Assembly: GCA_958366945.1 (NCBI GenBank)
Contig: CATXCY010000010.1
Span: 6,463 to 70,462, forward strand
Origin: an uncultured bacterium
GTDB lineage: Bacteria > Vulcanimicrobiota > Xenobia > Xenobiales > Xenobiaceae
Direction: 5' to 3'
DNA length: 64,000 bases
Below the pieces are notes generated by a model. The model made no database searches and was not told where the DNA came from. It saw only the letters and a program-made list of their open reading frames with translations. Positions within the stretch are counted from its first letter, which is position 1. Each line of letters begins with the position of its first letter. Shown here piece by piece: positions 22,981-44,623 of this stretch. Both the position numbers and the translations under genes were made by a program.

Positions 22981-23006
22981 CTAAGTTAAGGGGAGTGCGT
23001 TTTTGT

Positions 23007-24692
23007 ATGTTATGTAAAGTAACTCTGCCTCACGGTGTTCAAGAAGTTTCCAACGATACTTTTATTTGCGATGTATTATGTCGCGATTTAGGTATAGATG
23101 GCTCGGCGCAAGCCATGAAATTGCCTCTGTGCATAAACCATTTGCGTAAGGTTGGCTACGTAGGAGCTCAAGTTGACGGTGAAATTGTCGATTTGAAAGC
23201 TCGCATAGCATCCGATTGCAAGATTACTCCTCTTACTAACGACGATTATTTTGGCCGCCATATTGTTACACGCAGTTCTGCCTATCTGTTAGTGTATGCC
23301 GCTAAATTGGTTAATCCTGAAGCTGCTTTGGAAATCGGTCAGTCTTTGCACAGTCAGTTATTCTTTTATGTTAAAAATGTAGAAGATATCGAAGCGTTTG
23401 GGAAAGAAGTCAATGACACATTCGCTAAGCTTTGTGCTAAGAGGGTGCCATTTAAAACTAGCTTAGTTCCTCCTTCTGCCGCTTTAAATATGGTAGACGA
23501 TCCTGATGGCGATAGACGTTACGTTGTCAATTGCTGGGTAGGATCTAAATTCGGTGTAGTCAACATCGGTGATTATACCGATTTGGCCTACGGACCTTTT
23601 GTGCCGGATGCCGGATTCTTGCGCTCTATCAAGGTTGTGGGCATACCAGAGGGTTTACTTTTAGCCCAGGAGCCGGTGCAACTTCCTTCTGAAGAGTTGA
23701 AAAGCTTTATGCTTGGAGCTGCTACTCAGGCTAAAAATTGGAATAAGCGCATGAATATCGACACCGTTGGCAAATTGAATCGGTTAATTTTGAGCGGTGA
23801 AGGTCAGAACTTAGTGCAAGTAAGTGAAACTTTGCACGAATTGCGCATAGGTGAAATCGCTCACGATATTCTTTCTCGCCCCGGTATCAAAGTCGTCTTT
23901 ATTTCCGGCCCTTCCAGCTCGGGAAAAACTAGCACGGTACGTCGTCTTTCCACTCACTTGCAAGCTATGGGAAAACGCACTGTTTATGTCGGTCTGGACG
24001 ATTATTATTTGCCTTGTGAGCAATGTCCGCGTGATGAAAAGGGTGACTACGATTTTGAAGCTATTGAAGCTTTGAATTTGCAGCGTATTAAGAGCGATTT
24101 ACAATCTTTAGTGGATGGTAAAGTCACCAAAATACCGCGCTTTGATTTTGTCAATCAGCGTCCTTTCCCCGCCGAAGAAGAGAGCTCGCTTTGTTTAGGC
24201 GATGATCAAATTCTGCTTATTGAAGGTATTCACGGCCTCAATCCGGCTATTACTGATGCCATATCCAGAGATAAACGTTATGCCATTTTTGTGAGCGCTT
24301 TGCCGCAGCTTAACATGGACAATGTTAATAGGGTTCCTACCACTTATGCGCGCTTGTTACGTCGTATCATTAGAGATAGGCGCTATAGAGGTGTGTCAGC
24401 TGATAGCACCATCAAGCGCTGGCCTAGTGTTCGACGAGGAGAAAATAAATATATTTTCCCCCATCAAAGCCGTTCAGACGCCATTTTTAATTCGGCTTTA
24501 GCTTATGAGCTGGCTGTTTTCCGCCATTATGCTTGGCCTTACCTTTTAGAAGTGCCTGAAGATAGCCCCTCTTACATAATGGCTAGAGATATGCTGCGCT
24601 TTTTAACTAAAGTAGTACCTATGGATTCAGAGTGGATTCCTAAAAACTCAGTTTTACGTGAATTCTTAGGTGGCAGTATTTACCAATACTAA
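23007..24692 (+). CDS. ThrRS-N-terminal-like (TGS) domain fused to uridine kinase/phosphoribulokinase-family P-loop kinase
   Basis: N-terminus KVTLPHGVQEV...AQVDGEIVDLKARIASDCKITPLT is TGS-like. P-loop VVFISGPSSSGKTSTVRRL and the downstream YVGLDDYY are typical of the uridine kinase family. ATG at 23007 after the RBS aaggggag. Confidence 0.6.
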   Translation: MLCKVTLPHGVQEVSNDTFICDVLCRDLGIDGSAQAMKLPLCINHLRKVGYVGAQVDGEIVDLKARIASDCKITPLTNDDYFGRHIVTRSSAYLLVYAAKLVNPEAALEIGQSLHSQLFFYVKNVEDIEAFGKEVNDTFAKLCAKRVPFKTSLVPPSAALNMVDDPDGDRRYVVNCWVGSKFGVVNIGDYTDLAYGPFVPDAGFLRSIKVVGIPEGLLLAQEPVQLPSEELKSFMLGAATQAKNWNKRMNIDTVGKLNRLILSGEGQNLVQVSETLHELRIGEIAHDILSRPGIKVVFISGPSSSGKTSTVRRLSTHLQAMGKRTVYVGLDDYYLPCEQCPRDEKGDYDFEAIEALNLQRIKSDLQSLVDGKVTKIPRFDFVNQRPFPAEEESSLCLGDDQILLIEGIHGLNPAITDAISRDKRYAIFVSALPQLNMDNVNRVPTTYARLLRRIIRDRRYRGVSADSTIKRWPSVRRGENKYIFPHQSRSDAIFNSALAYELAVFRHYAWPYLLEVPEDSPSYIMARDMLRFLTKVVPMDSEWIPKNSVLREFLGGSIYQY

Positions 24693-24704
24693 TAAATATT
24701 GAAT

Positions 24705-24755
24705 AAAACGCTCCATTGGGTTGCAACAGAAACCGAGTAGAGCGTTTTTTTTTGT
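24705..24755 (+). terminator. Rho-independent terminator after the kinase gene
   Basis: AAAACGCTC...(structured loop)...GAGCGTTTTTTTTT. Confidence 0.5.
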
Positions 24756-24864
24756 CTTTTATTACTCTTTCGCAATAACTATTGATATGCTAAACTGATC
24801 TTGCGCTCATATGTGAAGCGATTGAGCGATATAATCACATATCATATATAGAGGGGGAAGTGGT

Positions 24865-25881
24865 ATGGTAAAAATAAGTTCTGCCCAAAGTGGCACTTTT
24901 GCTGACGGTAGTATCGCAATATCTAGTTATAAAGCCAAAGCAGGCTACAGCGATAAGCCTGATTATCAAGCCGAGCAAATAGACAAGGGAGACAGTCTGT
25001 CCTTAACAACAGATATTGGCTCCTTTTTTAATTTTAACCATTTGTCTTCTGGACATCTTCGTCAAGGTACATTAAGTACATCTTCAACAAAGCAAGAACA
25101 AGTTTCTCCAAATTCTCTTATACCCAGACACTTAAGTGAGCAAGAAGCTGAAGCTTTATCCAACCAGCAACTCAAAGCAGAATATGGACGCCATAGTCAA
25201 ATATCTTCTGATTCGGAAGCCAAACAGCAGAAATGTATTAGTCGCTCCATTGTCTTAAGCCAAAATAGGGAGCAAGCTTTGCATATGAATAGGCTGAGCT
25301 CTACTTTGAAACAAAGCGGCCGAAAATTGGCACAGCAGGCTTTGGCTCAGATCGCTTCTGGAGTGGCACTTTACGCTTCAGGAGCGGCTATGGAAGCTGC
25401 GGGTAAGGCTATGCTTGGTTGTCCTTTTACCAAAGCTGCTGGCATGGCCCTCGTATCGAAAGGCAAAGCTTTGAAACAACGTGGTATGCAAATGCGCCAA
25501 TATGGGCAAAAATTGGAGCTTAGTTCTAAAAATTTATTGAGCTCTGGGCTCAGCTTAGGAGCTTCTGCCAATAAACAGATTAACTATGTTAAAAACGCTT
25601 GGCAAGCTCTCAATAATATTTATCAACAAATAAAAACTGTGGGAAATTTAGCCAAAAGTAGTATGCTTTGTGCTGAAAATGTGGGACGTAAACGTGGCCT
25701 TTCTTTTACTTCCACGCCTAGTGGAAATAAATTAAAGGTTGGATTGTCTGCTTCCAAAATTGACAATGCGGTTGTGAGCACGTCAAGTAAGGTAACCAAT
25801 TCGAAAAGTTCAGCCGTTACCAGCAGTGCCGTAAAGCCCCTGGCTTTAGTCATGGGGAGTATGCCAATTGAAGTAAAATAG
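24865..25881 (+). CDS. Hypothetical Ser/Ala/Gln-rich protein (first gene of paralog cassette)
   Basis: Strong RBS agagggggaag. 338 aa, low complexity, no signal peptide. Helical Ala/Gly/Met-rich central segment. Confidence 0.5.
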   Translation: MVKISSAQSGTFADGSIAISSYKAKAGYSDKPDYQAEQIDKGDSLSLTTDIGSFFNFNHLSSGHLRQGTLSTSSTKQEQVSPNSLIPRHLSEQEAEALSNQQLKAEYGRHSQISSDSEAKQQKCISRSIVLSQNREQALHMNRLSSTLKQSGRKLAQQALAQIASGVALYASGAAMEAAGKAMLGCPFTKAAGMALVSKGKALKQRGMQMRQYGQKLELSSKNLLSSGLSLGASANKQINYVKNAWQALNNIYQQIKTVGNLAKSSMLCAENVGRKRGLSFTSTPSGNKLKVGLSASKIDNAVVSTSSKVTNSKSSAVTSSAVKPLALVMGSMPIEVK

Positions 25882-26031: not shown

Positions 26032-27249
26032 ATGGCTAAATTTCCAGTGCTAGACGATAACTTTCCACGTATTATTCCTTCTTTCAGACAGTTAGTAAAA
26101 ATTATGTCCGAATGTGTGGCCGGCGGAGTTAGCTTAACTTGTACCGCCTTTGAGTTCCGCCAATGTGATGCTGCTTTAGGAACAGCTTTGGGCAATTTTA
26201 TGGAAGTTTTGCGCTTAAAAGAACTTCCTCCAGAGCGCAATGAAGCAATTAACGAAATAGTGCTTTTGTTTACGCGTATGAGTTCCGAAATGGCCAAATT
26301 AGAAACAGCTCTGAGTATGGATGCTACAGCTGCGGCCGTTTCTTGTGTGGCCAATATTTACGATCACTTAAAAGATTTGGAAGAATTAAATATGGACTTG
26401 AAAGCCGCTGTTGGCGATAGCCATATTTATTCCGAAGTGCCGGTGGTGGACAGTTTACTGCGAGCGGGCAATTTTGTCTTAGAAACTAACGGAGCCGAAT
26501 GGGAAGCTCTGAGTGCCCGTTTGGAAGCTCTTATTCCTCAGTGGAATGAGATCGTCTCTGGTACTGGACTGCCGGAAGAACTAATTCGCCACGACAGAGC
26601 GTTGGAGCGCCTCGTTGAGGTACTTAACGAGCGAAATTTAGAAGCTTTGCCAAAAGTTCTGGAAGAAGTAAAATCCAGCGGCGAAGATCTGGTCAACTTC
26701 CAAGATAGTCAAATAGACACCGATACTTCCTCTGTAGTTTTGTGCCCCTATTGTGGTAAGCCTATGATCGAGGGTAGTAAGAAGTGCTTCTCTTGCGGCG
26801 CCAGGATGCCAGAAGAATTTGAGCGAGATTCTACAGCCGACAAAGATTCTGAAAAAGGCGAAGCGGCTTATGAAGGCATGCCAGAATATGTACAGCGTAT
26901 TATGGATATCGCTCAAGAACTTCCCAATAATGCCAAGATGATTCGTCCTTTCAAACGTGCTGTGGGAGAATTGCGTAGACGTGTAGCCGATGCCAATTCG
27001 CGTATCAATAAAATGGCTTCTTCTAAAATTAAGACCACTCCGGAAGAACGCGAAAATATTGATGGCATCGTAGATTTAGCTAATACTTGCATAGAAAATC
27101 TCTCTAAAGCCGTTGAGCTTTTGGAGGAGTTTGAACCACCTGTCGACAGGTTCCATTTGCAATGTGCTTTGGAAGTTATGGTTAAAGCGGTCAAAGAAAT
27201 GCGTGGCATGGGCGGTTTGGCTCAAAAATATCGCAATTCTAAAAAGTAA
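26032..27249 (+). CDS. Zn-ribbon-containing helical protein, paralog A
   Basis: N-terminal motif FPVLDDNFPRIIP and central CPYCG...CFSCG ribbon. It aligns along its length to the next gene. Internal ATG chosen (ORF track starts at 25948). Confidence 0.5.
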   Translation: MAKFPVLDDNFPRIIPSFRQLVKIMSECVAGGVSLTCTAFEFRQCDAALGTALGNFMEVLRLKELPPERNEAINEIVLLFTRMSSEMAKLETALSMDATAAAVSCVANIYDHLKDLEELNMDLKAAVGDSHIYSEVPVVDSLLRAGNFVLETNGAEWEALSARLEALIPQWNEIVSGTGLPEELIRHDRALERLVEVLNERNLEALPKVLEEVKSSGEDLVNFQDSQIDTDTSSVVLCPYCGKPMIEGSKKCFSCGARMPEEFERDSTADKDSEKGEAAYEGMPEYVQRIMDIAQELPNNAKMIRPFKRAVGELRRRVADANSRINKMASSKIKTTPEERENIDGIVDLANTCIENLSKAVELLEEFEPPVDRFHLQCALEVMVKAVKEMRGMGGLAQKYRNSKK

Positions 27250-27294
27250 TCAGTTCTCTTTTGCGTGCACATGACACAGCTCATTGGAGGTACC

Positions 27295-28485
27295 ATGGTA
27301 GATAAGCTGCCTAAGCTAGATGATTCTTTCCCCAAATTGATTCCCCATTTGCGTACTTTTGTAAGTGGTTTGGAACATTGTATAGTCAATAAAGAACCTC
27401 TTTCCCAGCTTCGTGAAGAATTACACCAATGCGATGTTGTTATGTCTGCTTTTGTACTGGCTTTTAAGTACAGTGTGCGCGGCTATGACTACAACGAAGA
27501 AGAACTGGAACATATCGCTCAAGTTTATGCCGATATTGAAGGTGTCGGTGGTGTGCTTTCTTCTCTCATTTGTGATTTAAAAGACGATGATGTCGAAGGC
27601 GCTGTACGTGATGTTAATGCTCTGGTCAATCAGTTGAAAGAAACTGAAAAAAGCTTAGCCAAGCTCGAAGAACTAAGAAATTCCAAGGCAAAGATTTCTG
27701 AATTTGACAGCATTGATGGAGTCCTTAAAGCTGGTCAGGCCGTGGTTGAGGGACGTCGTGGTTGGGAAATGTTGGAAAATCGTCTCGACTATTTGCGCCC
27801 ATCTTTTGATAAGCTGGTCGCTTGCAACTCTTTGCCTGAGCATATAGAAGATTATTGCGAAGCTTTAGATAATTTATTTAGAGTTTGCGAATGTCAATCT
27901 GTAGAAGAATTACCTGCCGCCTTAGAAGCTTTAAAAGCGACTGGTGATGTACTGATAGAAAAATATAAAGAAGCTAAAGCTAAACAAGAAGCTTTGGCTG
28001 CACAACAAGTTTGGCATTGCCCTAAGTGTGGTTGTGAAGTCAGTGAATGGGATAAGCGTTGTCCTTCTTGTGGAATGAGGCTGCCTGAGCGTATCGTCAG
28101 TGAAGTAGGGACTGAGAATAATTGTTTATTGCCCATGTTACCTACATGCGTGCAAACAATTTTAGATAGCGTAAGCTCTTTGCGCGAAGGTAATGATGCT
28201 TGGGCCGAGTTCTCAGCTGGATTGCATGAATATGGCAAATTTGTAGGCGAGCTTAAAGATAGGTACGCCTCTTTGCCAGAAAGTGTTTTTAATGGCGCTG
28301 AAGCAGAAGGTGAGTCTTTGATTCTATCTCGCGAAGCTATGGAAGAAGGACTCACTAAATTAGAAAATGCCTATTATGTATGTGAACACATGCAAAATGG
28401 TGGCGAAGTTAGCGATGAGGAACTCGATTCTACGCTAGAAAGCATGATTGAGGGAGTAGAACAAACACGTCAAATAGCTGGTTAA
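27295..28485 (+). CDS. Zn-ribbon-containing helical protein, paralog B
   Basis: ATG after the RBS ggagg. N-terminus LPKLDDSFPKLIP, ribbon CPKCG...CPSCG, acidic helical regions. Collinear with paralog A. Confidence 0.55.
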   Translation: MVDKLPKLDDSFPKLIPHLRTFVSGLEHCIVNKEPLSQLREELHQCDVVMSAFVLAFKYSVRGYDYNEEELEHIAQVYADIEGVGGVLSSLICDLKDDDVEGAVRDVNALVNQLKETEKSLAKLEELRNSKAKISEFDSIDGVLKAGQAVVEGRRGWEMLENRLDYLRPSFDKLVACNSLPEHIEDYCEALDNLFRVCECQSVEELPAALEALKATGDVLIEKYKEAKAKQEALAAQQVWHCPKCGCEVSEWDKRCPSCGMRLPERIVSEVGTENNCLLPMLPTCVQTILDSVSSLREGNDAWAEFSAGLHEYGKFVGELKDRYASLPESVFNGAEAEGESLILSREAMEEGLTKLENAYYVCEHMQNGGEVSDEELDSTLESMIEGVEQTRQIAG

Positions 28486-28513
28486 AATTTCCCAAAGTTT
28501 GTCTTTTTCTATA

Positions 28514-28569
28514 ATACCCGCAAAAGTACGCGAGCTGCTTAGAAGTGCGTACAAAGCGGGTATTTTTTG
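28514..28569 (+). terminator. Strong rho-independent terminator
   Basis: ATACCCGCaaaaGTACGCgagctgcttagaagtGCGTACaaaGCGGGTATTTTTTgt: nested hairpin plus T-run. Confidence 0.75.
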
Positions 28570-28680
28570 TGATGAGTTAATTAAAAATATTCTATAAAAA
28601 ATTTGCCTGCAACTCTTTACTTTTAGGCCTTGTGCCTTGAAAATAAGGACAAGTCTAGTTTTAAAAGAGAGGTAATTCTC

Positions 28681-29814
28681 ATGGGTGTTTTATCTACTGC
28701 TTCTACTATAGCTATGATGACGGCTAACGATTACAAGAATGCTCAAGCCATCTATGCTAATATGCAACAACAGGCTACGCTTGCCCAGAATGGTGGTATG
28801 GGAGTTCTTACCCAGCAAGCTCTTAAGGCTGCCTCCGCGCAGAATATGGAATTGCTTAATCAGCAAGCCGCGCAAGCCGCTAAAGCTTCCTCTGGCTCTT
28901 CTTCTATCGATTCTATATCATCTTCTTTTAGTGACCAGATTCAGCAACTGACCTCTTCCAATCTTTCTGTCACTGATCAGATTAGCCAGATTACTTCCGC
29001 TTCTGGTATGTCTGCTTCTTCTGCTGCTGGTTTTTCTACTTCTACAGATTTTACTCAGGCTATTATTGATAGCATTTCTTCTGCTAGCAAGTCTTCTTCC
29101 AGCTCCAGCACCAATAGCGACGTAATGACTAGCGCTACCAATATGCTGAAGACTTACTTCAAACAGTTCTGCCCTGGCATGAGCGATGAGCAAATTTCTG
29201 CTATTTGCAAATTTGCCGCCTCTCAGTATGGTGACCTGGCTAAGGCCATGGATATGAGTTCCTTAACTTCTAGCGTTATGGGCTCTTCTTCTACCGGCAG
29301 TGCCAGCAGCTCTGGAAGTGCTAGCAGTGTAGGTAACAATGGCAACTACGGCGCCAATAAGGGCGTAAGCGGTTTGCTTTCCGATGCTGGCGCTATGGTT
29401 GGTATGACTGAGCAGTCTAATGCTGCTTCTATTAACAAAATCACCAAAAAGAGTGGTATCAATTGCCAGACTACCCCTTGGTGCGCTGCTTGGGCAATGA
29501 ATATGCTCAAAGACCATGGTGTGTTGGATACTTCTTCTTGCTCCAACGTCAACTATTGTCCCACTATCGTAAACTGGGCCAAAAAAGAAAATATTTGGGC
29601 TGGTCGCGGTTCTTACACTCCTCAAGCTGGTGACGCGATCCTCTTCGACTGGCAGGGTGATGGTACTTCCGATCACATTGGTATCGTAGAAAAAGTCGCC
29701 AACGGTAAGGTTTATACCATTGAAGGTAACTCTTCTGACTCCGTGGCCAGAAGAAGCTACAGCTTGAGCAGTAGCAAAGTTATGGGCTATATCAACTGCG
29801 CCGCTCAAAAATAA
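28681..29814 (+). CDS. Polymorphic-toxin-like protein: low-complexity N-terminal region, conserved internal module, C-terminal CHAP-domain peptidoglycan amidase/peptidase
   Basis: ATG after the RBS agagagg. C-terminus TPWCAAWAMNML...AGDAILFDWQGDGTSDHIGIVEKVANGKVYTIEGNSS has the CHAP Cys and His motifs. No signal peptide. Confidence 0.6.
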   Translation: MGVLSTASTIAMMTANDYKNAQAIYANMQQQATLAQNGGMGVLTQQALKAASAQNMELLNQQAAQAAKASSGSSSIDSISSSFSDQIQQLTSSNLSVTDQISQITSASGMSASSAAGFSTSTDFTQAIIDSISSASKSSSSSSTNSDVMTSATNMLKTYFKQFCPGMSDEQISAICKFAASQYGDLAKAMDMSSLTSSVMGSSSTGSASSSGSASSVGNNGNYGANKGVSGLLSDAGAMVGMTEQSNAASINKITKKSGINCQTTPWCAAWAMNMLKDHGVLDTSSCSNVNYCPTIVNWAKKENIWAGRGSYTPQAGDAILFDWQGDGTSDHIGIVEKVANGKVYTIEGNSSDSVARRSYSLSSSKVMGYINCAAQK

Positions 29815-29993: not shown

Positions 29994-30938
29994 ATGTCTT
30001 TGCCATCTATCACCATGAATTTCTTGGCTGCGCAAGGTGTTGCGGGATTGCCAACCAGTTCCAATAGTGCAAGCACTGGCGTTAATAGTACTGCTGTTTC
30101 TGCTCTTGATAGCGCTTCTCTTAGTTCTTTAGCTACAGCAGGAACTGATGGATTGGCCAACCTTGGCTCTTTGTCTGATTACTTGTCTGGTCAGGCCTCT
30201 GGAAGTTCTGGCAGCAGTGCCTCTTTGGGACTTTCTGGCAGTGCCGATTTTGCTTCCATGGTTGGTGAAATTGCCAAGCAATATAAGGGCAGCAGTTCTT
30301 CTTCTGCCAACAATCAGGTAATGTCCACTGCTGCCAATATGTTAAAAACATATTTTAAGCAATTTTGTCCTGGTATGAGTGACGACCAGATTACCGCTAT
30401 TTGTAATATGGCCTCTGCACAATACGGCGATTTAGCTAAAGCTATGGATATGAGTTCTTTAACTTCCAGTGTTATGGGCTCTTCTTCTGCTGCTTCTGGA
30501 GCTACTGGCGCTTCTTCTAGTGCTGGTTCTTCCGCAGTTTCAAAAGTAAGTGCCAAAGACGTTAAGGGTACCGCTTGGGGCAAGGCTTTAGCTGCTGACG
30601 CAGAGTCTCATGCCACAGGTAGCGGCGGCTGGTGCTTCAAATATGTGCGCCAAGCTTTAGAGCGCCATGGAGTTACTGGAGTTGGTGGCGCCAGTGCTTA
30701 TATGGCTGCCGATCAATTAGCCCGCAATAGTAACTTCAAAGAAATTAGTGTTTCAGAATCAGATCTTCGCAATTTGCCTGCAGGTTATGTTGTCGTTTGG
30801 AATAGAGGTAACGGTGCTAGTAGGCAGCATGGCCATATTTGCATCTCTTTAGGCGATGGTAGAGAAGCTTCTGACGTTATTCGCAAAATGACTCAAGGAT
30901 ATGGCACTTCCTTTAGAGTTTTTCAGCCTGTAAAATAA
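29994..30938 (+). CDS. Polymorphic-toxin-like protein: low-complexity N-terminal region, same conserved internal module, C-terminal Tae4-like papain-fold peptidoglycan amidase
   Basis: C-terminus GGWCFKYVRQALERHG...AGYVVVWNRGNGASRQHGHICISLGDG parallels the Cys (xCxxxxxxLxxxG) and His (GH-hydrophobic) motifs of the Tae4 family of gamma-D-glutamyl-mDAP amidases. No signal peptide. Confidence 0.55.
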   Translation: MSLPSITMNFLAAQGVAGLPTSSNSASTGVNSTAVSALDSASLSSLATAGTDGLANLGSLSDYLSGQASGSSGSSASLGLSGSADFASMVGEIAKQYKGSSSSSANNQVMSTAANMLKTYFKQFCPGMSDDQITAICNMASAQYGDLAKAMDMSSLTSSVMGSSSAASGATGASSSAGSSAVSKVSAKDVKGTAWGKALAADAESHATGSGGWCFKYVRQALERHGVTGVGGASAYMAADQLARNSNFKEISVSESDLRNLPAGYVVVWNRGNGASRQHGHICISLGDGREASDVIRKMTQGYGTSFRVFQPVK

Positions 30939-31044: not shown

Positions 31045-33303
31045 CTAATCAAACATTTTATCTAATTCGGCTTTTTTAAAGCGTTGAGGCTCGTGACCAG
31101 TCCAGTCGATCACAAAATAAATCTTTTCTGGTTGTTGTATTTTGCTGAAAAAACGTATTTGATCTGTAGGTAGCATTTTATAATTGTAATACCAGCCAGT
31201 GGGAGAGGGTTTGGAAATTCCTTTGGCATGAAGATGGCGAGCACCTTTAGGGAAGAAGGGCATAACTCGTGCAGCCAATTTCTCGCCTAAAACTTTGCAC
31301 CCCATATCGCCGCGCATTATTAAGCGGAGGTGGGGAGCGAAGAGTAAGCTGCTTTCAAAGCCTACCGTCTGCCCTTGAAAATCGCCTTCTACGGTATCGC
31401 GAATTATCAATCTTTGTTCTGTAGGCTTAAAAAGAAGCTCACGTCTTAAACTTAAAACTAAACCGTTAGTTAGATGAGCTTGACGCCTTGTCCACAAGAG
31501 TACATCCGCTCCTCCTTTTCTTTCCCTATACAAAGGAGAGCAAAAAACGTAACCCTCTTTATGTATCTCAGTTATATTGTCAGGAAAATCTATGCGTTCG
31601 GAAGCGTTCAAATCTCCCAAATAGGCCACTTTAAAAGGCGAAACTTCCTCGGCAAGTGTGGGAGCGGAATGGGAAAAAAAGCTATTTAAATAAGGATAAG
31701 CGCTGCTAGAAATAGTGGAAAAACCAGCATCTATAAGGAATGGCTCATTTTCTATAGTTAAAAATATTGATAAGAAATCACAATGTGGCTGGGGCACAGC
31801 TTGGTGTAAATTGGGAGCTTTATAAAAACCTTTAGTTAGATCGGCAGTTGGACAACCTTTTATAATGGCCTGAGAACTGTTGGCTCCCCAATGATCACGC
31901 ACACTGCCTATACCATTGGCAACGAAATAAAAACTTGTCTCTTCAGGAAAATAATCTCCTCGACCAGCACCAAATTTGGCGGTGAGCTCTGGAGTAGGAG
32001 CTACCCACCAAGACACTTCCGCAGGCATACGCTCTATGCCACATAAGAATTCGTCATGGTCGAAAACTATGGCACCCAGACATAATAAAGTCTGAATATA
32101 CTCGGATATAGAGGATTGCCTTCCCATAAATCCTGGAGCACAAAATGTGCCTATATGAGGAGCTACTTTATTGGTGCCGTTAATAGCTTGCAAAGCTTCA
32201 AGAGAAATGCGCAGCGCTTCTGATAAATATTGCGGAGTTTGGGTATGATTGCTTACATGCTGCAATACAGGCAATAGCATCCATTCTAAAGCCGCACAAT
32301 GAGCGCATAAAGATCCACTTAAATGTAACCCGCTACTTCCAAACTCACGTTCAATAAGGTCTAAAAGCTTAGACTCTGCAACTGAACGCCACCGCTTAGA
32401 TAATTTTAATTCAGGAAAATTGCTTGCGAATACATAGAGACAGGCTGCAGCAGGGAACGATAAAACTGTATCGTAGCGAAGGTGCCAAGCCAAAGCTGCT
32501 CCGTGTACGATCATCGTTTCCATTATTTTCGCGAAAATACGGGGCGTAAAAGCAGAGCTGTGTAAACACATATCAACGGCAATCATCCAGTTCATCAGCC
32601 TGATGGCTACCGTATCAAAATTTAGCCAGTTTACACCTATCCAAAGAGGATTGCTGGCTCCCCATTCAGTCGCTTGAATGAGAATCTCGGAAGCGTATTT
32701 GTCCTGTTTGCTAAGCCAATAAGAGCGGGCCAAAGTGAGAAAATGATAATGCTCATTTAGCTCCCAGGTACGATCCAAAGAAGGATACTTGGCTAAGGGA
32801 GATTCGCTCAGATTGGCTTTATTATCCGGAGATAAAACTTTTCTCAGCTCTTTAACGGCAGTTCTAGGCCAGCTTCTAGAGCAAAAATCGGAAAACCAAT
32901 CAATGTTGCCAGTGAAAGTTTCTTGTTGGTTGGAAAGATAAGAAGAAAAAGTATGCCTCATCGCTTGCTGCGTCGAGTCACTGAGCTCTTTGACAGCTGA
33001 AGGAGAGGATTTAAACGCATTTGCAACTTCCTTGGTGTCTGAATGTCGCAAAAATAGCGTAGGGCGACTGCGGTCGCGGAAGTGATTGAAGAGCGCTTCC
33101 GCGGCCTTATCAGGTTGATCGTGCAAAGAATAATTTTTTGCTTCCTCGATTCCAGGTGCTCCAGAGAATTGCCCAAACAAATATTTGTCTTGCAAATCGT
33201 AAGTAGAACAACTGTCGTAAGCCAAATCGACCTGAGCCTCCAAGCTAAATGGCATGGAAGAAGTGATTATATTCTTACGTAACCAAGGAAACATATTATC
33301 CAA
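31045..33303 (-). CDS. Heparinase II/III-like (alginate-lyase superfamily) protein
   Basis: 752 aa. N-terminal alpha/alpha toroid-like region with W/N/R-rich motifs (WIGVNWLNFDTVAIRLMNWMIAVD) and a C-terminal beta-sandwich-like region. Immediately downstream of a DegT aminotransferase. Confidence 0.55.
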   Translation of the reverse strand: MDNMFPWLRKNIITSSMPFSLEAQVDLAYDSCSTYDLQDKYLFGQFSGAPGIEEAKNYSLHDQPDKAAEALFNHFRDRSRPTLFLRHSDTKEVANAFKSSPSAVKELSDSTQQAMRHTFSSYLSNQQETFTGNIDWFSDFCSRSWPRTAVKELRKVLSPDNKANLSESPLAKYPSLDRTWELNEHYHFLTLARSYWLSKQDKYASEILIQATEWGASNPLWIGVNWLNFDTVAIRLMNWMIAVDMCLHSSAFTPRIFAKIMETMIVHGAALAWHLRYDTVLSFPAAACLYVFASNFPELKLSKRWRSVAESKLLDLIEREFGSSGLHLSGSLCAHCAALEWMLLPVLQHVSNHTQTPQYLSEALRISLEALQAINGTNKVAPHIGTFCAPGFMGRQSSISEYIQTLLCLGAIVFDHDEFLCGIERMPAEVSWWVAPTPELTAKFGAGRGDYFPEETSFYFVANGIGSVRDHWGANSSQAIIKGCPTADLTKGFYKAPNLHQAVPQPHCDFLSIFLTIENEPFLIDAGFSTISSSAYPYLNSFFSHSAPTLAEEVSPFKVAYLGDLNASERIDFPDNITEIHKEGYVFCSPLYRERKGGADVLLWTRRQAHLTNGLVLSLRRELLFKPTEQRLIIRDTVEGDFQGQTVGFESSLLFAPHLRLIMRGDMGCKVLGEKLAARVMPFFPKGARHLHAKGISKPSPTGWYYNYKMLPTDQIRFFSKIQQPEKIYFVIDWTGHEPQRFKKAELDKMFD

Positions 33304-34768: not shown

Positions 34769-36583
34769 TTAACCTTTGCTGCGTACTTCAAACTCTAAGC
34801 GCCATTTAGGAATGGAGTCTTGGCAACACCAAACTTCTAAGGTACCTACTTCGGTTACATAAGTTTCTAAAGTAACTGGTACTACTTTACCAATTTCTCC
34901 CGCTTCAGCCGGTAAAGTAATTTGCAACGAAGGCAATTCTTCTATATCGTCTTCCCAATCGTCGATTAAGTCACCAATTTTATCTTGCTGTCGACAAGTG
35001 GAAGCTAAAAATCTAAATTCAGCCAGTTCGCCTATGACCAGGCCGAAACTGCGATTAGGTAGACGCTCGCGTGAGTCTTCTTCCATGCCGAAAGGAGCGA
35101 CGCATAAAGCTTTAATGGGAGGAACAAGACCAGGAACAGCTGGCATGGAAGTTTCGATACCAACATAATAAGAGCGATTGGTACCGGCTTTAATTCTTAT
35201 TCCAGAACCTTGACTAGCCAAACCGCTGCGCACGGCTCCGCGAGCTACGGCCAAGTCGTAGTCCGCTCCTACTAATTCTTTGGCGGGAGGAGCTCCCACA
35301 GATTCTAACCAAGAGTTTACCGTTTCCAATAAACGACGGCGCAAGATGGGAGCTTTCAGCACGCCTCCGTTAAAGAGAATTGCTGTAGGAGCAAAAATGG
35401 GAGCGGAGCCATCTTCTGGTTTATTGGCTGCCAAAAATCTGGCCAAATGTTTGGTGATAGCCGGATTCGATTCAAAAGGCAAGCCCAATTCGCGCAAACC
35501 ACTTTGACGAGACCGTTCAGCTTGTTCATCAAGGGAACATTTAGGGAAGAATCCGTCTACAATTAGTTGCTCGGTAACTTGGCGGCTTAAGGAGTCGGCA
35601 ATGGAAGAAGCTATTAAGCTGCTGCCGCGTCCAGGAATGGTGACGCTCCACTCTTCCTCGGCGTATTCTTGTAACAGTTGCTCTTTGGCTGTGCGGCAAG
35701 CATGGGTGAGGACTTGCATTTGCCAAGCGTCAAGCTTAATTTTACGCTCTGATTTTAGCTTTTGCTGCATATACACAGCCAAAGTCAGATCCATGTTGTC
35801 TCCGCCAAGTAAGAGATGATCTCCTACAGCTGAGCGCTCTAAGCATAAGCTGCCGCCTTGGTCGGCTACAGTAATAAGGCTAAAGTCGGTAGTTCCTCCA
35901 CCTATATCACATACTAAAATTTTGTCTCCGACTGCTACTTGAGAGCGCCAATCTTCTTCAGTGTTAACCAACCAAGCATAAAAAGCGGCTTGAGGCTCTT
36001 CTAAGAGGGTTAAATTTTTGATGCCAGCTTTTTGAGCTGCTTGAACGGTTAGTTCTCTAGCTATCGTATCAAAGGAAGCAGGTACAGTTAAAACGACTTG
36101 CTGATCTTCTAAGGGCTGATCGGGGTGTTCAAAATTCCAAGCTGAACGTAAATGCTCCAAATAACGAGCCGAAGCGTCAATGGGGGAGATATGCTCCACT
36201 TCTTCGGGAGCGTTCCAAGGCAAAATAGGAGCACTGCGATCTATTTGCTCACTAGAAAGCCAAGACTTGGCTGAAGAAACAACTCTGTGGGGAACTTTAG
36301 CGCCTTGCTCACGGGCCATATATCCGACTATGTCTTTGGCCTCTTTATCCCAAGGCAATTCGATACTATGGGCTGGCAATTCGTGGGAGCCGGGGAAGTA
36401 AAGAAATGAAGGCAGAGTCTTGCGTGGCTCTACTGTAGCCGGATAGGTAAGCTGAGGAACAGCAAAATGATTTATAGGAGGAGTCTCTTTAGCTGCCTTC
36501 GCTTGTGCTGAAATGGATTCCGGATCAGACCAAGCTAAAGCGCAATTTGTTGTTCCCAAGTCTATACCTATAATCATATGCAA
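34769..36583 (-). CDS. Hsp70-family (actin-like ATPase) protein, non-canonical
   Basis: IIGIDLGTTNCALAW, VLTVPASFDTIARELTVQAAQKAGI, VCDIGGGTTDFSLI. Confidence 0.8.
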   Translation of the reverse strand: MHMIIGIDLGTTNCALAWSDPESISAQAKAAKETPPINHFAVPQLTYPATVEPRKTLPSFLYFPGSHELPAHSIELPWDKEAKDIVGYMAREQGAKVPHRVVSSAKSWLSSEQIDRSAPILPWNAPEEVEHISPIDASARYLEHLRSAWNFEHPDQPLEDQQVVLTVPASFDTIARELTVQAAQKAGIKNLTLLEEPQAAFYAWLVNTEEDWRSQVAVGDKILVCDIGGGTTDFSLITVADQGGSLCLERSAVGDHLLLGGDNMDLTLAVYMQQKLKSERKIKLDAWQMQVLTHACRTAKEQLLQEYAEEEWSVTIPGRGSSLIASSIADSLSRQVTEQLIVDGFFPKCSLDEQAERSRQSGLRELGLPFESNPAITKHLARFLAANKPEDGSAPIFAPTAILFNGGVLKAPILRRRLLETVNSWLESVGAPPAKELVGADYDLAVARGAVRSGLASQGSGIRIKAGTNRSYYVGIETSMPAVPGLVPPIKALCVAPFGMEEDSRERLPNRSFGLVIGELAEFRFLASTCRQQDKIGDLIDDWEDDIEELPSLQITLPAEAGEIGKVVPVTLETYVTEVGTLEVWCCQDSIPKWRLEFEVRSKG

Positions 36584-36624
36584 ACGTCTCCCAGAATAGT
36601 TTATAAAAGTCCCAATTTACCAGG

Positions 36625-37131
36625 CTATAACTCTACTTCAGCCGGACAAATAACGTCTGAATCTTCGTCCTGAGCGCTTTGGGGCAAATTGGCTTTTTGT
36701 AAGCGCCAGCCTTTGTGACGCAAGATCCCTTTGAAGGGCGGATCGCCTTCTACTTTGCCTACCAAACGAATTGCGCCTGGATCGAAGCCGTCTTCTACAG
36801 TAATTTCTATACCTTCTTCTTCGGTACGGATAGGCTCCAGAATCAAATACTCTTGGACAGCTTTGCGGCAGCCTTTATAAACAGTAGATTTTACTACAGC
36901 TCCGACTTGAGCGTCAGGGACATTCTCTAAATCTTCTTGCAAAAAGTCTATAAGCCGTCCTTCTCTCTGAAGCAAAGCTAAAACTCCTACCGCACCGGGA
37001 TAAAGCGAAGGTACTCCGGACGGAGTTTCTTGAACAACTTCGCGATCTGCCAGCAGAAGAGCCAACTTTTCGGCAAATTCTTTATTAAACAAAGCTTTGA
37101 AAAAAGCTTTAAAAGCTGTGATTATACGCAT
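36625..37131 (-). CDS. Small acidic protein, possibly DUF2760-like Hsp70 partner
   Basis: 168 aa, N-terminus MRIITAFKAFFKALF, directly downstream of the Hsp70-like gene on the same strand. Confidence 0.35.
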   Translation of the reverse strand: MRIITAFKAFFKALFNKEFAEKLALLLADREVVQETPSGVPSLYPGAVGVLALLQREGRLIDFLQEDLENVPDAQVGAVVKSTVYKGCRKAVQEYLILEPIRTEEEGIEITVEDGFDPGAIRLVGKVEGDPPFKGILRHKGWRLQKANLPQSAQDEDSDVICPAEVEL

Positions 37132-39176: not shown

Positions 39177-40880
39177 CTATTGACTGATTAATTTGCGCAA
39201 ATCCCCGTATTGTCTGATCTTAAACCAAGTTAATTCTCCGTTAAGTAAGTAACGCCAGGCTACAGCTCCCATTTTTATGAAATTAGTTGCCCAAGCTAAA
39301 TAAAACGGAAATTGCCAATGACGTTTAAAAAAATCTCGTCGCTCTAGCAAGAAATTTATGAAACTTTTGGGTATGAACGATTTTGAAGCCAGACAGTATA
39401 TAGCTAAATAAAAGCGATCTTCTGGACTACGAGGCCAATCCATCGAAACACGGAACTGCTTCCAAGCTTTGTTGTTCATGCCTTCAACCTCATCGGGAGA
39501 AAGTTTGCCTTCAGCCAGTAATCTTTTGGTTATGGCTGTGCCTGGAAAATAGTTAAGTGAGTAAAAATAGACGTCGTAAGGGCGTTCTAGCTCTAACATA
39601 AACTTGGCTGTTTCTAATTTCATCTTTTCATCGGCCCAAGGGTTGTCGATAATTAGATCATAAACAGCTGATATGCCCAGTTGTTTGTTGAATTTGGAAA
39701 AGGCTAGTATATTATCGTTGCCCGGTATGCGGTTATGAACAGCCAAACTTTCCTGCGGTGAGCCGCTTTCGATGCCTGTTTGCATTCGGACCAAGCCGGC
39801 TTTTTTTAGCTTCTCCAGAAAAGGCTGACGTAACATAGGTGGTATAAGCATACATTCAAAGGGCAAACCTATACGCTGTGGATATTTTGAGCAGAATTCG
39901 TCTACCCATGAGGGAGGGGCTGCAAAAGCTGTATCATCATCTATTTTTACTCTAGCCAAACGGGGAAAATGCTTTTTTATATATTCAAGCTCGCCTAAAA
40001 TGTGCTCTACGGAGCGTAGACGATAAAATTTTTGTTTGTCGGCCGCAAATTTTTCGCGCAGAATAGATACATAACAGTAAGAACAATTATAAGGACAGCC
40101 CCGTGAACAATAAATTCTGTATTCAGCTGTTCTCTTCCAGGGCTCTTCATTGTGAATTTTTTTATCTTCTATATAAAACTTATTGAAATCGTCTACATCT
40201 GGATAAGGCAATTCGTCCAAGTTGGCAATTAGAGGGCGCATTTCGTTTTTGTAAATTTTGTCTCCCAACTTTGCCCAAATATTGGGAATATCGCCGGTAA
40301 AATTATTGCTGTATAGAGCCTCGCATAAGTCTATAAGTGGAGCTTCTCCTTCGCCCAGACAGAGATAATCGGCGCAATCTAAAGCTCCTTCGGGGACAGC
40401 AGTAACGTGAATACCGCCCCAACATACTGGTAAATCAGAAAAGCGTTTTTTTAGTGCTTTGGTAAGCTCTTTTACCATTGGCAACAAGCTAGAAATAAAG
40501 CCTATGCCTACAAGATTGGCTTGTTTGTCGGCTATAATTTTGAATACCAACTCTAGTTCTTGAGCTGAAGGCATTTCCAATTTGTTATTTACCCAATCGC
40601 GCAAGAAAATTAGATCCACCTGGAAACCGGCGCGGCGTAAAGCTGCTGATAAGTAGCGCAAACCGGAATTTTCAACGCTGTAAATAGCTATTAATATTAC
40701 ATTAAATTGTTTTGGCTCTCCGTACCAACCAGAGCGAGGTGCCCAGGGAGCATGAATTTGTTTCTGTGCCGATCCTAAAGCCGGATCGAAAAGAGCCTCT
40801 GCCGATCCTGGAGAAGCGCCGGGAGCAGTTAATTTTGATGAAAAATTGTCATAAGTAATAGTTTTATCTGAATTTAACAT
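39177..40880 (-). CDS. B12-binding-domain radical SAM protein
   Basis: N-terminal B12-binding Rossmann region (VILIAIYSVENSGLRYLSAALRRAGF), radical SAM motif CSRGCPYNCSYC. Overlaps the upstream gene by 7 nt. Confidence 0.8.
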   Translation of the reverse strand: MLNSDKTITYDNFSSKLTAPGASPGSAEALFDPALGSAQKQIHAPWAPRSGWYGEPKQFNVILIAIYSVENSGLRYLSAALRRAGFQVDLIFLRDWVNNKLEMPSAQELELVFKIIADKQANLVGIGFISSLLPMVKELTKALKKRFSDLPVCWGGIHVTAVPEGALDCADYLCLGEGEAPLIDLCEALYSNNFTGDIPNIWAKLGDKIYKNEMRPLIANLDELPYPDVDDFNKFYIEDKKIHNEEPWKRTAEYRIYCSRGCPYNCSYCYVSILREKFAADKQKFYRLRSVEHILGELEYIKKHFPRLARVKIDDDTAFAAPPSWVDEFCSKYPQRIGLPFECMLIPPMLRQPFLEKLKKAGLVRMQTGIESGSPQESLAVHNRIPGNDNILAFSKFNKQLGISAVYDLIIDNPWADEKMKLETAKFMLELERPYDVYFYSLNYFPGTAITKRLLAEGKLSPDEVEGMNNKAWKQFRVSMDWPRSPEDRFYLAIYCLASKSFIPKSFINFLLERRDFFKRHWQFPFYLAWATNFIKMGAVAWRYLLNGELTWFKIRQYGDLRKLISQ

Positions 40881-42049
40881 AGCGGACTTACCCTTTTTAT
40901 TTCGTTAGCTAGATCCGAGGGAGAAGGCAGAGGCTTAGCGGAAAAACGGCGGAAATTCATGCGCAGAGCGTTAAAAAAAGCGGAGGTATTATGCAAAGTT
41001 AAAGCTATCTCCCACCAACAAGGACGCAAGCAAGCTCGACAATTATGACGCAAATTTTTGAGATAATTTAAGTCGCGTTTTTGCTGGTACCAATTTACAA
41101 AATCGCTTTCATAGACTTTGGGCGCTTTACTGGAAGCGTCATTTTGAAAATGACACATAGAGTAAGTGCCGCTTGGGCTGATAGAAAAACTAAGGCCGCC
41201 AGTTTGGCAATCTGTTCCTGTGCCCCAATAATTGGTATTCGTCTGTTGCGCAGTAGTAGATTTTGTGCTGTCGGCAGCTTTTAAGAAATTGACCATAGCT
41301 TTTAAATAAGGCTCAGAATTAAAAATCGGTGATTGTGGTTGCCGTTTAGCTTGTAATATGTAGTTAAGCAATTTGTTGAGAGCGGCTTCATCTTTTTCAC
41401 TAAAGCGCATTGCTTCTGAATCAGCAGAACAAGCCAGAATTTCTCCTTGATAGCTGTGTCTTTCTAAGGGAACTAAAGATAAATAAAAATTATAGGCTTT
41501 GGCTATAGCTAGCATTTGCGGAATATCTTTTATATTGCGCGTTGAAACTACACAATTTAAGATGCCAGTTCCGCCACGTTTACGAATTATTTCCGCCCAA
41601 AATTTAATTCGCTCAATTATCTTTTCCCAAATTTCTGGCTTGTGGCATATTTCACTCTGAACTTGGGGATGAGGAGTATCTAAAGAAATTGAAATGTGAC
41701 GCAACCCAGCCTCGACTACTGCCATATGTAATTCCTCTGTGCCTGCTAGGGCGTTGGTCAAGACTCTAGTTTCAATTCCTCTGTCGATAAAAGCTTTGAC
41801 TATTTTAGGTAAGTCTGGGCGCAGAAAAGGTTCACCACCTCCCAGAGAAATGGCCATAGTGCCGAGGCGACGCAGATTATCGGCTGTGGATTCTATTTGC
41901 GCAATTGTAAGTTCTTCGTCTTGACGCCCTTTTTTCCATAATCCACACATGGCACAAGTGAGGTTGCAGCGGTGAGTCAAGCCAAAATGAACATATATAG
42001 GTGTGTTGCCGTTCCAAAAAGCTTTAACAAGCGACCAAGGGTTTTTCAC
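40874..42049 (-). CDS. Radical SAM protein with C-terminal SPASM-like Cys cluster
   Basis: THRCNLTCAMCG (CxxxCxxC), GGGEPFLRPDL, C-terminal CRACLRPCWWE. Confidence 0.75.
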   Translation of the reverse strand: MKNPWSLVKAFWNGNTPIYVHFGLTHRCNLTCAMCGLWKKGRQDEELTIAQIESTADNLRRLGTMAISLGGGEPFLRPDLPKIVKAFIDRGIETRVLTNALAGTEELHMAVVEAGLRHISISLDTPHPQVQSEICHKPEIWEKIIERIKFWAEIIRKRGGTGILNCVVSTRNIKDIPQMLAIAKAYNFYLSLVPLERHSYQGEILACSADSEAMRFSEKDEAALNKLLNYILQAKRQPQSPIFNSEPYLKAMVNFLKAADSTKSTTAQQTNTNYWGTGTDCQTGGLSFSISPSGTYSMCHFQNDASSKAPKVYESDFVNWYQQKRDLNYLKNLRHNCRACLRPCWWEIALTLHNTSAFFNALRMNFRRFSAKPLPSPSDLANEIKRVSPLC

Positions 42050-43503
42050 AATTTCAGGATCTCCCAGCCAGCTTTTAATTTGCGGGCCATATCATTAAAA
42101 TTTTTAAGCTCTAGCAACTTGCGGAACATTTGCTTAGGGCGCAAATAAAAGCGTTTGAAAGCTTTATCGCATAGAGAGCTGAGCTCTGAGGCTGTAAAAA
42201 ATTCTGTCCATACTTGAGGCTTAAAATCAGGATATGGATTGGCCAAAAAATTCTCCCAATGTTGCGGATCGAGAATGCCTCTAGCTACACCTTGATCATA
42301 AATCAAAGTGTTAGGATAAGGAGTTAAAATTCCAAATAGAGCGTAATCAGGATCGAGAGAAATGGCAAAATCTACAGTACGATTTATTTCATCTATAGAA
42401 CTGTCATGAGGACAGCCGATCATAAAGTAGCATACCGTAGTTAAACCTTCATCAGTAAGCATTTTGAAGGCCTGACGCACCTTATCTGTAGTCAGATTTT
42501 TATTTAAAGCCTTCATACCAGCATCTGTACCAGACTCAACTCCTATATGCACTCTGGTACAACCTGCCAAACGCATAGCTTTTACGGTTTCTGGAGTTAG
42601 GCAATTGGCGCGGGCTCGAATATTCCAATTTACTTTAATGGAGCGTTTATTTATTTCTTCACAAATAGCCAAAACGCGGTCTCGACGGACGTTAAAGGTA
42701 TCGTCTACTATATATATTTCATGTACACCTAAATTGGCGCAAACTTCCATTTCATCTACTACTGACTTGGCACTTCGCCAACGCCAGGTAGTACGTCCGG
42801 GAGTGTTGCAAAAAGAACATTTGTAAGGACAGCCACGGCTGGTTAAGAGAGAAGTTGCTATAGCTTCACTACCCAAAACGTAGCTATACTTGCGGTAGTC
42901 TAGTATCTCGCGTCGAGGAAAAGGTAGTTTATCCAAATCGTCTATGGGTGGTCGTGAACATGTTTGCACGATATTCCCTTGATTGTCTTTAAAAAATAAG
43001 CCTGCAATGTTGCGCAAGCTATTTTCTAAAGTTTGACAATCGTAACCGTGGCTGTCGCTCCAGGAGGCTAAGTGGGCTTGCACAACTTCTGTAAAAGCTT
43101 CTTCTCCTTCAAAGGGAATGCAACCATCCAAACATTGGTATTTCATGCACTGTTGGGGAAAATCAGAAACATGCGGGCCGCCCCACCAAACCTTTACCGT
43201 TTTACCCAAATCTTTTTTTACCGACTCAGATACTTGAATCATGTCAATTAGATCATGAGTATGACCGGTTAGGCCTACTATTTGTGGTTTATAGTCAATT
43301 ATAAGTTTGCGCAATTGCTCAAGGTGAAGATGATCGGCCAAACAATCGATAAGACGTGTTTCTACCTGAGTATACTTATGGAGATGGGCTTCTATATAAA
43401 GCAAGCCTAAAGGCGGAATAGTGTTGGTTTCCGCATTTACCGTAGTTGGCACTTCTGAGGATATACTGTTGTCACGTGGTGGATTTATTAAAAGGATTCT
43501 CAT
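42046..43503 (-). CDS. B12-binding-domain radical SAM protein
   Basis: MRILLINPP N-terminus, radical SAM motif TSRGCPYKCSFCNTP. Confidence 0.82.
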   Translation of the reverse strand: MRILLINPPRDNSISSEVPTTVNAETNTIPPLGLLYIEAHLHKYTQVETRLIDCLADHLHLEQLRKLIIDYKPQIVGLTGHTHDLIDMIQVSESVKKDLGKTVKVWWGGPHVSDFPQQCMKYQCLDGCIPFEGEEAFTEVVQAHLASWSDSHGYDCQTLENSLRNIAGLFFKDNQGNIVQTCSRPPIDDLDKLPFPRREILDYRKYSYVLGSEAIATSLLTSRGCPYKCSFCNTPGRTTWRWRSAKSVVDEMEVCANLGVHEIYIVDDTFNVRRDRVLAICEEINKRSIKVNWNIRARANCLTPETVKAMRLAGCTRVHIGVESGTDAGMKALNKNLTTDKVRQAFKMLTDEGLTTVCYFMIGCPHDSSIDEINRTVDFAISLDPDYALFGILTPYPNTLIYDQGVARGILDPQHWENFLANPYPDFKPQVWTEFFTASELSSLCDKAFKRFYLRPKQMFRKLLELKNFNDMARKLKAGWEILKL

Positions 43504-43567
43504 AAGGTTGTTTTGACAGCTCTCGGACTTTTATTGCATGTATATGCATTGATTAATTAGCGGATTG

Positions 43568-44596: not shown

Positions 44597-44623
44597 GTTG
44601 CTTTTTGTCTCTCCGTATTGTGC

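Follow-up and report, generated by a model that had tools for sequence, protein, structure and literature searches.

A phylum-restricted family of helical zinc-ribbon proteins encoded beside low-complexity amidase genes in Vulcanimicrobiota

A pair of acidic, helical zinc-ribbon proteins

The DNA considered here, called the window and always meant at its full length of 64,000 nt, comes from an uncultured member of the Xenobiaceae (Vulcanimicrobiota, class Xenobia; assembly GCA_958366945.1, contig CATXCY010000010.1, positions 6,463 to 70,462, forward strand). Five plus-strand open reading frames (ORFs) lie in it between a PRK/uridine-kinase-like gene and a convergent heparinase II/III-like gene (Table 1). 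Two of these ORFs, the zinc-ribbon genes A and B, belong to a family that is restricted to one phylum and described in no database. Genes of this family stand next to genes for amidases with low-complexity N-termini in many loci, and functional pairing of the family with these enzymes is supported by this co-occurrence.

The ORF of B is open from 27265 to 28485, with candidate starts at 27265 and 27295. Translation most likely begins at the ATG at 27295, because GGAGG lies 5 nt upstream of it and orthologues begin with MVDKLP; the gap between A and B is then 45 nt. A sequence-only reading of the locus had described the two products as paralogous with low overall identity, as acidic and helical, and as sharing an ordered set of motifs, and all three descriptions stand. 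BLASTP aligns A with B across the full length at 26% identity (E 3e-36), far beyond chance, and the two are real, ancient paralogues. Their isoelectric points (pI) are 4.88 (A) and 4.56 (B), and they are predicted to be all-helical apart from the zinc ribbon. No transmembrane (TM) segment or signal peptide is found in either, and on such sequence features both look like cytoplasmic proteins.

Each motif of the earlier list (LDDxFPxxIP, QCD, the Cys4 motif and the others) is present in A and in B. The pairs are, for A and B respectively, PVLDDNFPRIIP and LPKLDDSFPKLI, VVDSLLRAGNFVLE and SIDGVLKAGQAVVE, and WEALSARLEALIP and WEMLENRLDYLRP, together with QCD and the Cys4 motifs CPYCG-x9-CFSCG and CPKCG-x9-CPSCG. 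The LDD-x-FP-x-IP motif is restricted to the gut clade and its nearest (sister-clade) relatives, and more distant members carry TDLPAFNxL instead. Across an alignment of 45 members, the four zinc-ribbon cysteines are the sole invariant residues of the family. The conserved elements of this alignment follow one another in the order N-terminal P-x-F-x-x-L, helical regions, S-E-x-P-x-V-x-x-L-L-R-x-G, zinc ribbon then L-P, and C-terminal helical region.

Family membership and distribution

No Pfam or NCBIfam family is matched at its curated cut-off by A, B or the distant members. NCBIfam matches are far below the cut-offs, and the best Pfam matches, also sub-threshold, are to Zn_ribbon_3 (PF13248; 22.2 bits, cut-off 27) and Zn_Ribbon_1 (PF13240; 22.1 bits, cut-off 25). 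The CxxC-x10-11-CxxC knuckle pair of A and B, about 23 residues long, resembles these two families and DZR (PF12773), but it scores 21-22 bits against gathering thresholds of 25-27, makes up 6% of the protein and is uninformative on function. Sequence searches of the PDB with A, B and family profiles returned matches to the zinc-ribbon region (ribosomal eL40 and 9sfa) and to designed coiled coils only. The match to 9sfa, a 'Putative regulatory protein', is weak (E 1.8e-4) and spans about 40 residues of the zinc ribbon. Literature searches gave nothing on the family. The suggestion that A and B fall into no known family is thus borne out by the Pfam, NCBIfam and PDB sequence searches, and by the fold search described below.

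Close homologues form 10-11 clusters each for A and B, and the named ones come from 'Candidatus Bruticola sp.', which belongs to the class Xenobia of the Vulcanimicrobiota. A family profile, built from 20 homologues of A and B and run against 1.84 billion representative proteins, gave 1334 matches at E<=1e-3, many of them unrelated zinc-ribbon-repeat proteins. About 65 of the top 150 matches align in a single stretch from end to end, are 380-460 amino acids (aa) long and contain exactly two CxxC pairs. A word-indexed homologue search with a broad family alignment returned almost nothing. The family is defined here by a length of about 380-460 aa, an N-terminal helical region, S-E-x-P...LLRxG, CxxC-x10-11-CxxC...P, a C-terminal helical bundle and a full-length profile match. 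A, B and about 65 distant representatives have all of these features and align end to end, and every family member whose source is named comes from Vulcanimicrobiota/Eremiobacterota/Xenobia. In a neighbor-joining tree the A clade and the B clade are sisters, which points to duplication of the gene in the common ancestor of the gut-associated clade.

Short proteins of about 150-180 aa that cover the zinc ribbon and C-terminal bundle only were also observed, at L030 and L034 13219-13752 (E ~1e-15) and at L007 16388-16834 (E 1e-4), where L-numbers denote the compared loci; the family therefore appears modular. A phage origin was considered and is unsupported, as a search of viral contigs gave no zinc-ribbon family member and only 5 amidase-domain matches.

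Predicted fold

The AlphaFold2 models of A (20 sequences; predicted local distance difference test, pLDDT, 78; predicted template modelling score, pTM, 0.40) and of B (64 sequences; pLDDT 91, pTM 0.61) both arrange the helices as three four-helix bundles, with the Cys4 zinc ribbon between bundles 2 and 3. In the model of B, the bundles comprise approximately residues 18-130, 138-237 and 284-392, and the space from the second to the third is taken up by a small beta zinc ribbon (residues 240-262) together with a disordered linker. Three helical bundles with a zinc ribbon are what the models show as the predicted fold of the family. Foldseek searches of the PDB with both models gave nothing at E<=0.001. 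The best neighbours were the alpha-catenin M region, talin rod R7R8, the vinculin head and FAK FAT, at E values of at least 0.009 and with a whole-chain TM score of about 0.2. As in these proteins, the models of A and B are four-helix-bundle arrays, and the PDB entries matched for the bundles show bound amphipathic helices (paxillin LD motifs, talin VBS). Unlike A and B, they are eukaryotic and have no zinc ribbon, and since the scores are not significant the likeness is an analogy at most.

Association with amidase genes

Gene neighbourhoods were surveyed from both sides of the presumed partnership. In the survey anchored on the zinc-ribbon family, which comprises 11 loci, a low-complexity CHAP-superfamily amidase is encoded in the flank in five (the window, L007, L008, L086 and L088). 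In L089, L087 and L003 the flanking gene encodes a low-complexity protein that either is incomplete at its end or lacks an amidase domain. A 288-aa Met/Gln/Gly-rich protein ending in a Cys/His peptidase-like domain is encoded directly upstream of the family gene in L007. L008 contains two family paralogues with a 300-aa gene between them and, alongside, a divergent gene for a 227-aa Met/Gln-rich protein; the C-terminal domains of this protein and of the 314-aa protein of the window (neighbour 2 in Table 1) share 53% identity. Divergent genes encode a Met/Gly-rich NlpC-like protein in L086 and a Met/Gly/Pro-rich protein with a Pfam NLPC_P60 domain in L088; the divergent Met/Gly-rich ORF of L089 is cut by the contig end, and a 114-aa Gly/Met/Tyr-rich ORF lies upstream in L087. 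The 198-aa downstream protein of L003 was also considered as an orthologue. It has no detectable homology to the mid-module shared by the window's two amidase-like proteins, and it was counted as a low-complexity protein only.

In the survey anchored on the amidase, genomes were scanned with the C-terminal domain of neighbour 2, which gave 75 loci whose flanks were searched with the hidden Markov model of the zinc-ribbon family. In 14 of the 75, all of them in metagenome-assembled genomes (MAGs) of Vulcanimicrobiota type, a full-length member of the family is encoded at a distance of 0-3.5 kb. L048, L052, L053, L054 and L058 have it immediately downstream in the same orientation, and it is divergent from the amidase gene in L056, L057, L059 and L060; the remaining linked loci are L011, L014, L021, L037 and L047. 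No zinc-ribbon family member is present in the amidase-anchored loci from other phyla, and several MAGs hold multiple amidase paralogues of which only one adjoins a family member. For a random flank of about 1.2 Mb, and with the number of family copies per genome estimated at a few, this adjacency is far more than chance would give. Moreover, it recurs in lineages that share no other synteny. A test of co-occurrence had been suggested with the sequence-only reading, and its outcome is positive, with zinc-ribbon genes beside low-complexity CHAP, NlpC/P60 or Tae4-like amidase genes at many independent loci of the Vulcanimicrobiota. The partners differ in their catalytic domain (Pfam CHAP, Pfam NLPC_P60 or Tae4-like) and have the low-complexity N-terminus in common, which points to the N-terminal region as the part relevant to the zinc-ribbon protein.

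The Vulcanimicrobiota-type module was also seen in MAG records labelled Riflebacteria, Selenomonadaceae or Burkholderiales: L011 (CAAGRW010000158.1), L013/L060 and L014/L037/L047. The amidase domain of L011 is 95% identical to that of the window, and the taxonomic labels of these records are probably wrong.

Local gene order and transcription units

In the gut clade the A-B pair is constant and the flanking genes are variable, as a comparison of its loci indicates. L011 is colinear with the window. L001-L003 (A 67% identical) have, in this order, PRK, an MmeI-type restriction-modification gene, a 416-aa homologue of the 338-aa gene, A, B, a gene for a 198-aa low-complexity protein and heparinase, and L004-L006 (A 61% identical) have PRK, A, B, heparinase and nothing else. 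The MmeI-type gene (6171-8576 in L001-L003) is situated between the PRK-like gene and the module and is missing from the corresponding interval of the window (24692-24865). Its insertion in a related species marks the PRK-side intergenic site as a variable spot. Homologues of the 338-aa upstream gene are confined to the gut clade, namely L011 and L001-L003 (e.g. L003 8641-9891); the gene is absent in L004, no relatives were found beyond the clade, and its link to A and B is uncertain.

RNA folding of the intergenic regions places a strong hairpin with a U-tract after the PRK gene, B, the CHAP gene and the last gene (z -3.7 to -5.6). A terminator scan missed these hairpins, as it allowed loops of only 3-8 nt. 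The hairpins suggest that A and B form a bicistronic unit and that each amidase gene is transcribed separately.

The neighbouring amidases

Both genes downstream of B encode proteins of the CHAP / NlpC-P60 superfamily, as judged from the papain-like order of catalytic Cys and His and from Pfam matches, which for neighbour 2 come via homologues. In neighbour 2, the Cys in GGWCFKYV and the His in HGHICI are invariant among 22 homologues. Pfam gives no match for the window copy itself; 17 of the 22 homologues of its domain match CHAP at E<=0.05 (best 1e-5). The sole match of this domain in a PDB sequence search is 4hz9_A, which is weak (E 5e-4) and spans the Cys and His motifs. This entry we take to be Tae4, of the type VI amidase effector and immunity pair Tae4-Tai4 (PDB 4hz9/4hzb).

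The two genes had been read as paralogous and toxin-like. Both are amidase-like, but they are paralogous only in a 78-aa internal module (aa 123-200 of neighbour 1 and aa 85-161 of neighbour 2; 69% identity, MLKTYFKQFCPGMSD[ED]QI[ST]AIC...). Outside it, BLAST detects no relationship between their N-termini or between their catalytic domains, a pattern suggestive of domain shuffling. The N-termini are Ser-rich in these two proteins and in L012, which also shares the 78-aa module. Other Vulcanimicrobiota amidases have a Met/Gln/Gly/Pro-rich start, e.g. MMQMMQMMQMMM and GMPMGMPMGMP, followed by Gly/Ser-rich linkers. A membrane anchor formed by the Met/Gln-rich helix was considered and rejected, since a hand-estimated mean hydropathy of ~0.5 for MMQ repeats suggests an amphipathic helix and not a TM segment. 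Inspection revealed no obvious Sec or Tat signal in the Vulcanimicrobiota amidases, and nothing comparable to these Met/Gln/Gly-rich, signal-less N-termini was found in full-text literature.

In proteins of Sericytochromatia, Bdellovibrionales, Planctomycetota and Myxococcota the same amidase domain occurs in fusion with PG_binding_1, and the N-terminus of several of them resembles a signal peptide. Both features point to extracytoplasmic peptidoglycan as the likely substrate, and the Vulcanimicrobiota enzymes, having no signal, would need some other route or helper. Beyond Vulcanimicrobiota, amidase-domain homologues (L061-L085) were observed mostly in Vampirovibrionales/Melainabacteria, Sericytochromatia, Myxococcota, Bradymonadia, Bdellovibrionales and Planctomycetota. 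Several of these lineages (Vampirovibrionales, Myxococcota, Bradymonadia, Bdellovibrionales) are known or suspected predators.

A family of ORFs of about 133 aa, with no signal peptide and a weak, sub-threshold match to DUF4245, immediately adjoins the gene for the Tae4-like amidase in 15 loci, some with and some without a zinc-ribbon gene. These are the two given in Table 1 and L014, L017, L019-L021, L023, L038, L044, L046, L047, L057, L059 and L060; the ORF is absent from the window. It is a better candidate than A or B for an immunity or inhibitor protein.

Table 1. Features of the module, with positions in the window unless a compared locus is named
Feature	Position	Strand	Description
PRK/uridine-kinase-like gene	22995-24692		
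Upstream gene	24865-25881	+	338 aa, basic (pI 9.9), Ser-rich, Gly/Ala-rich helical segment
A (paralogue A)	26032-27249	+	405 aa, acidic, helical, central Cys4 zinc ribbon; orthologues 61-97% identity
N-terminal motif of A, PVLDDNFPRIIP	26044-26079	+	sequence of A
Zinc ribbon of A, CPYCGKPMIEGSKKCFSCGARMP	26743-26811	+	sequence of A
B (paralogue B)	27295-28485	+	396 aa, acidic, helical, zinc ribbon
Zinc ribbon of B, CPKCGCEVSEWDKRCPSCGMRLP	28018-28086	+	sequence of B
Terminator-like hairpin and U-tract after B	28513-28570	+	-23.5 kcal/mol, z -3.7
Neighbour 1	28681-29814	+	Ser/Gln-rich low-complexity N-terminus, no signal peptide; C-terminal CHAP domain (Pfam E 8e-13, above cut-off)
Neighbour 2	29994-30938	+	314 aa, Ser-rich low-complexity N-terminus; C-terminal CHAP-superfamily (Tae4-like) amidase domain
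Heparinase II/III-like gene	31045-33303	-	convergent
Met/Gln/Gly-rich amidase	L052 7617-8387		
Met/Gln/Gly-rich amidase	L056 2946-3668		
Met/Gln/Gly-rich amidase	L007 9059-9925		
Met/Gln/Gly-rich amidase	L008 7542-8225	-	
Met/Gln/Gly-rich amidase	L086 2-604	-	
ORF of ~133 aa	L056 3682-4083		
ORF of ~133 aa	L008 7129-7542	-	

Possible functions of A and B

The catalytic domain of the partner is swapped and the type of N-terminus is kept, and A and B look cytoplasmic whereas the substrate lies outside the cytoplasm. The most economical reading of this pattern is a cytoplasmic partner that would bind the N-terminal region of the amidase, as a chaperone, a targeting adaptor or a holding factor; it is put forward tentatively, as a plausible account that we would not yet call probable. 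The helical bundles of A and B would bind the amphipathic low-complexity N-terminal region in the cytoplasm, and the enzyme would be held by its dedicated chaperone, targeting adaptor or holding factor until export or activation. In the gut clade, A and B may do so as a heterodimer. The best structural neighbours of the models, tandem four-helix bundles that bind amphipathic helices, would fit such a role. Whereas paralogy, architecture, restriction to the phylum and the recurring gene neighbourhood are shown, we infer that there is physical contact, which part of the enzyme it involves and whether it serves export. Adjacency of the kind expected of a generic effector chaperone or adaptor is seen in 5 of 11 and 14 of 75 loci.

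Several observations weigh against a cytoplasmic N-terminus-binding partner. The association is not universal, as the A-B pair of L004, L005 and L006 has no amidase nearby, L009 and L010 have neither an amidase nor a low-complexity protein near the family gene, and no zinc-ribbon family gene lies within 8 kb of most amidase paralogues. In the window, terminator-like hairpins enclose the A-B unit and one follows each amidase gene, so that these genes adjoin without forming a single operon. About half of the linked loci show the two genes in divergent orientation, as is also typical of regulator-target pairs. Bundles that bind helices resemble the models in a generic way (best Foldseek E 0.009, TM ~0.2), and the gene tables of the examined loci revealed no secretion apparatus.

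Divergent transcription from the amidase gene (L008, L056, L057, L059, L060, L086, L088 and L089) would suit proteins that regulate the expression or activity of the amidases, whether as an acidic zinc-ribbon factor that targets RNA polymerase or a transcription factor or as a cytoplasmic signalling scaffold controlling wall hydrolysis. The separate A-B transcription unit of the window, the zinc ribbon as the only invariant element of the family and the match of its region to 9sfa would agree with this as well. That match is confined to the zinc ribbon, however, no DNA-binding domain is recognisable in A or B, a strongly acidic pI is unusual for nucleic-acid binders, and in L048, L052, L053 and L058 the genes are co-directional and tightly spaced; a regulatory role is considered unlikely, though worth keeping in mind. 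Doubtful, too, is a lineage-specific housekeeping role unrelated to the amidases (e.g. cytoskeletal or scaffolding), in which the neighbourhood would merely reflect a shared variable genomic spot. It would account for the fixed syntenic site of the gut-clade pair, from the PRK-like kinase gene to the heparinase II/III-like gene, for surrounding genes that come and go (the MmeI gene, the 338/416-aa gene, the amidases) and for L004, L009 and L010, where amidases are missing. Inherited synteny is no explanation for adjacency in distant lineages with wholly different surroundings (L007, L008, L086, L088, L048-L060).

The sequence-only reading had proposed paired chaperone/adaptor or immunity roles. 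Co-occurrence upholds the pairing, though as a facultative one, and the immunity half fares worse. If A and B conferred immunity or acted as inhibitors, neutralising the adjacent amidases inside the cytoplasm of the producer, they would be expected beside toxin-like amidase genes, as in many loci, and the two amidases of the window have no other obvious immunity gene beside them. The family nevertheless accompanies at least three catalytic domain types, whereas immunity proteins are normally domain-specific, and A and B are large (400 aa), cytoplasmic and devoid of a signal peptide, with the target peptidoglycan outside the cytoplasm. Neither the one-to-one domain specificity of toxin-immunity pairs nor their location in the compartment of toxin action is seen. 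With the distinct ~133-aa ORF family following the Tae4-like domain in loci with and without a zinc-ribbon gene, and with an A-B pair kept in L004 without any amidase, an immunity function is judged highly improbable.

A further proposal goes beyond a cytoplasmic partner of the N-terminus. The family could be the cytoplasmic recognition component of an undescribed, signal-peptide-independent delivery route for lytic amidases with Met/Gln/Gly-rich (or Ser-rich) low-complexity tags in Xenobia, possibly used in killing or preying on bacteria, which seems decidedly unlikely at present. Predatory behaviour has been suggested for Eremiobacterota (PMC9259500).

Comparison with known systems

Eag/DUF1795 and DUF4123 adaptors of type VI secretion systems (T6SS) and the LXG-associated Lap helical partners of type VII secretion systems (T7SS) are dedicated chaperones or adaptors of polymorphic toxins and effectors. 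As in those systems, A and B are cytoplasmic accessory proteins encoded beside a modular protein with a constant-type N-terminus and a swapped C-terminal enzyme (CHAP, NlpC/P60 or Tae4-like), and some loci of the family have a separate small putative immunity gene. However, A and B have no Pfam or Foldseek similarity to DUF4123, DUF1795/Eag, DUF2169 or Lap/DUF3130, and they are much larger (400 aa, three bundles and a zinc ribbon). The N-termini of the neighbouring enzymes are Met/Gln/Gly-rich or Ser-rich low-complexity regions and not PAAR, VgrG, Rhs or LXG, and the gene tables of the examined loci contain no T6SS or T7SS genes. For the neighbours, not for A and B, there is also a likeness to Tae4-Tai4, in that the C-terminal domain of neighbour 2 matches 4hz9_A and a small ORF follows the amidase in other loci. 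Here again the match is weak, Pfam puts most homologues in CHAP, no T6SS context was found, and the candidate immunity ORF (~133 aa) has no signal peptide. Altogether, the family is new to databases, and what it most resembles is an already known type of system, an accessory protein beside a modular wall-degrading enzyme.

Significance and the wider window

Vulcanimicrobiota (Eremiobacterota) have one cultivated representative, described in 2022 (PMC9758169). Most lineage-specific proteins of the phylum have no assigned role, and one such family now has a fold description and a reproducible genomic partner. If the partnership is physical, it would show how lytic enzymes are handled or exported without Sec or Tat signals, and it would define a new class of accessory protein for modular amidase 'toxins'. 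If it is not, the family is another phylum-specific protein of unknown function. A new mechanism is not yet demonstrated, but unusual signal-less amidases with a partner in an almost uncultured phylum merit follow-up.

Other parts of the window were noted in passing. On the minus strand, an HSP70-like gene (604 aa) forms a pair with a DUF2760 gene (34769-37131), at the same position as in L001-L005. Also on the minus strand, four radical-SAM genes, two with B12-binding domains, are followed by a DegT-type aminotransferase gene (39177-46423), after which an amine-oxidase-like flavoprotein is encoded at 46608-47996; the whole run may be a sugar- or metabolite-modification cluster. The division and cell wall (dcw) cluster (48853-63047, plus strand; MraW, a penicillin-binding protein transpeptidase, two Mur ligases and more) is situated about 18 kb downstream of A and B and does not adjoin them.

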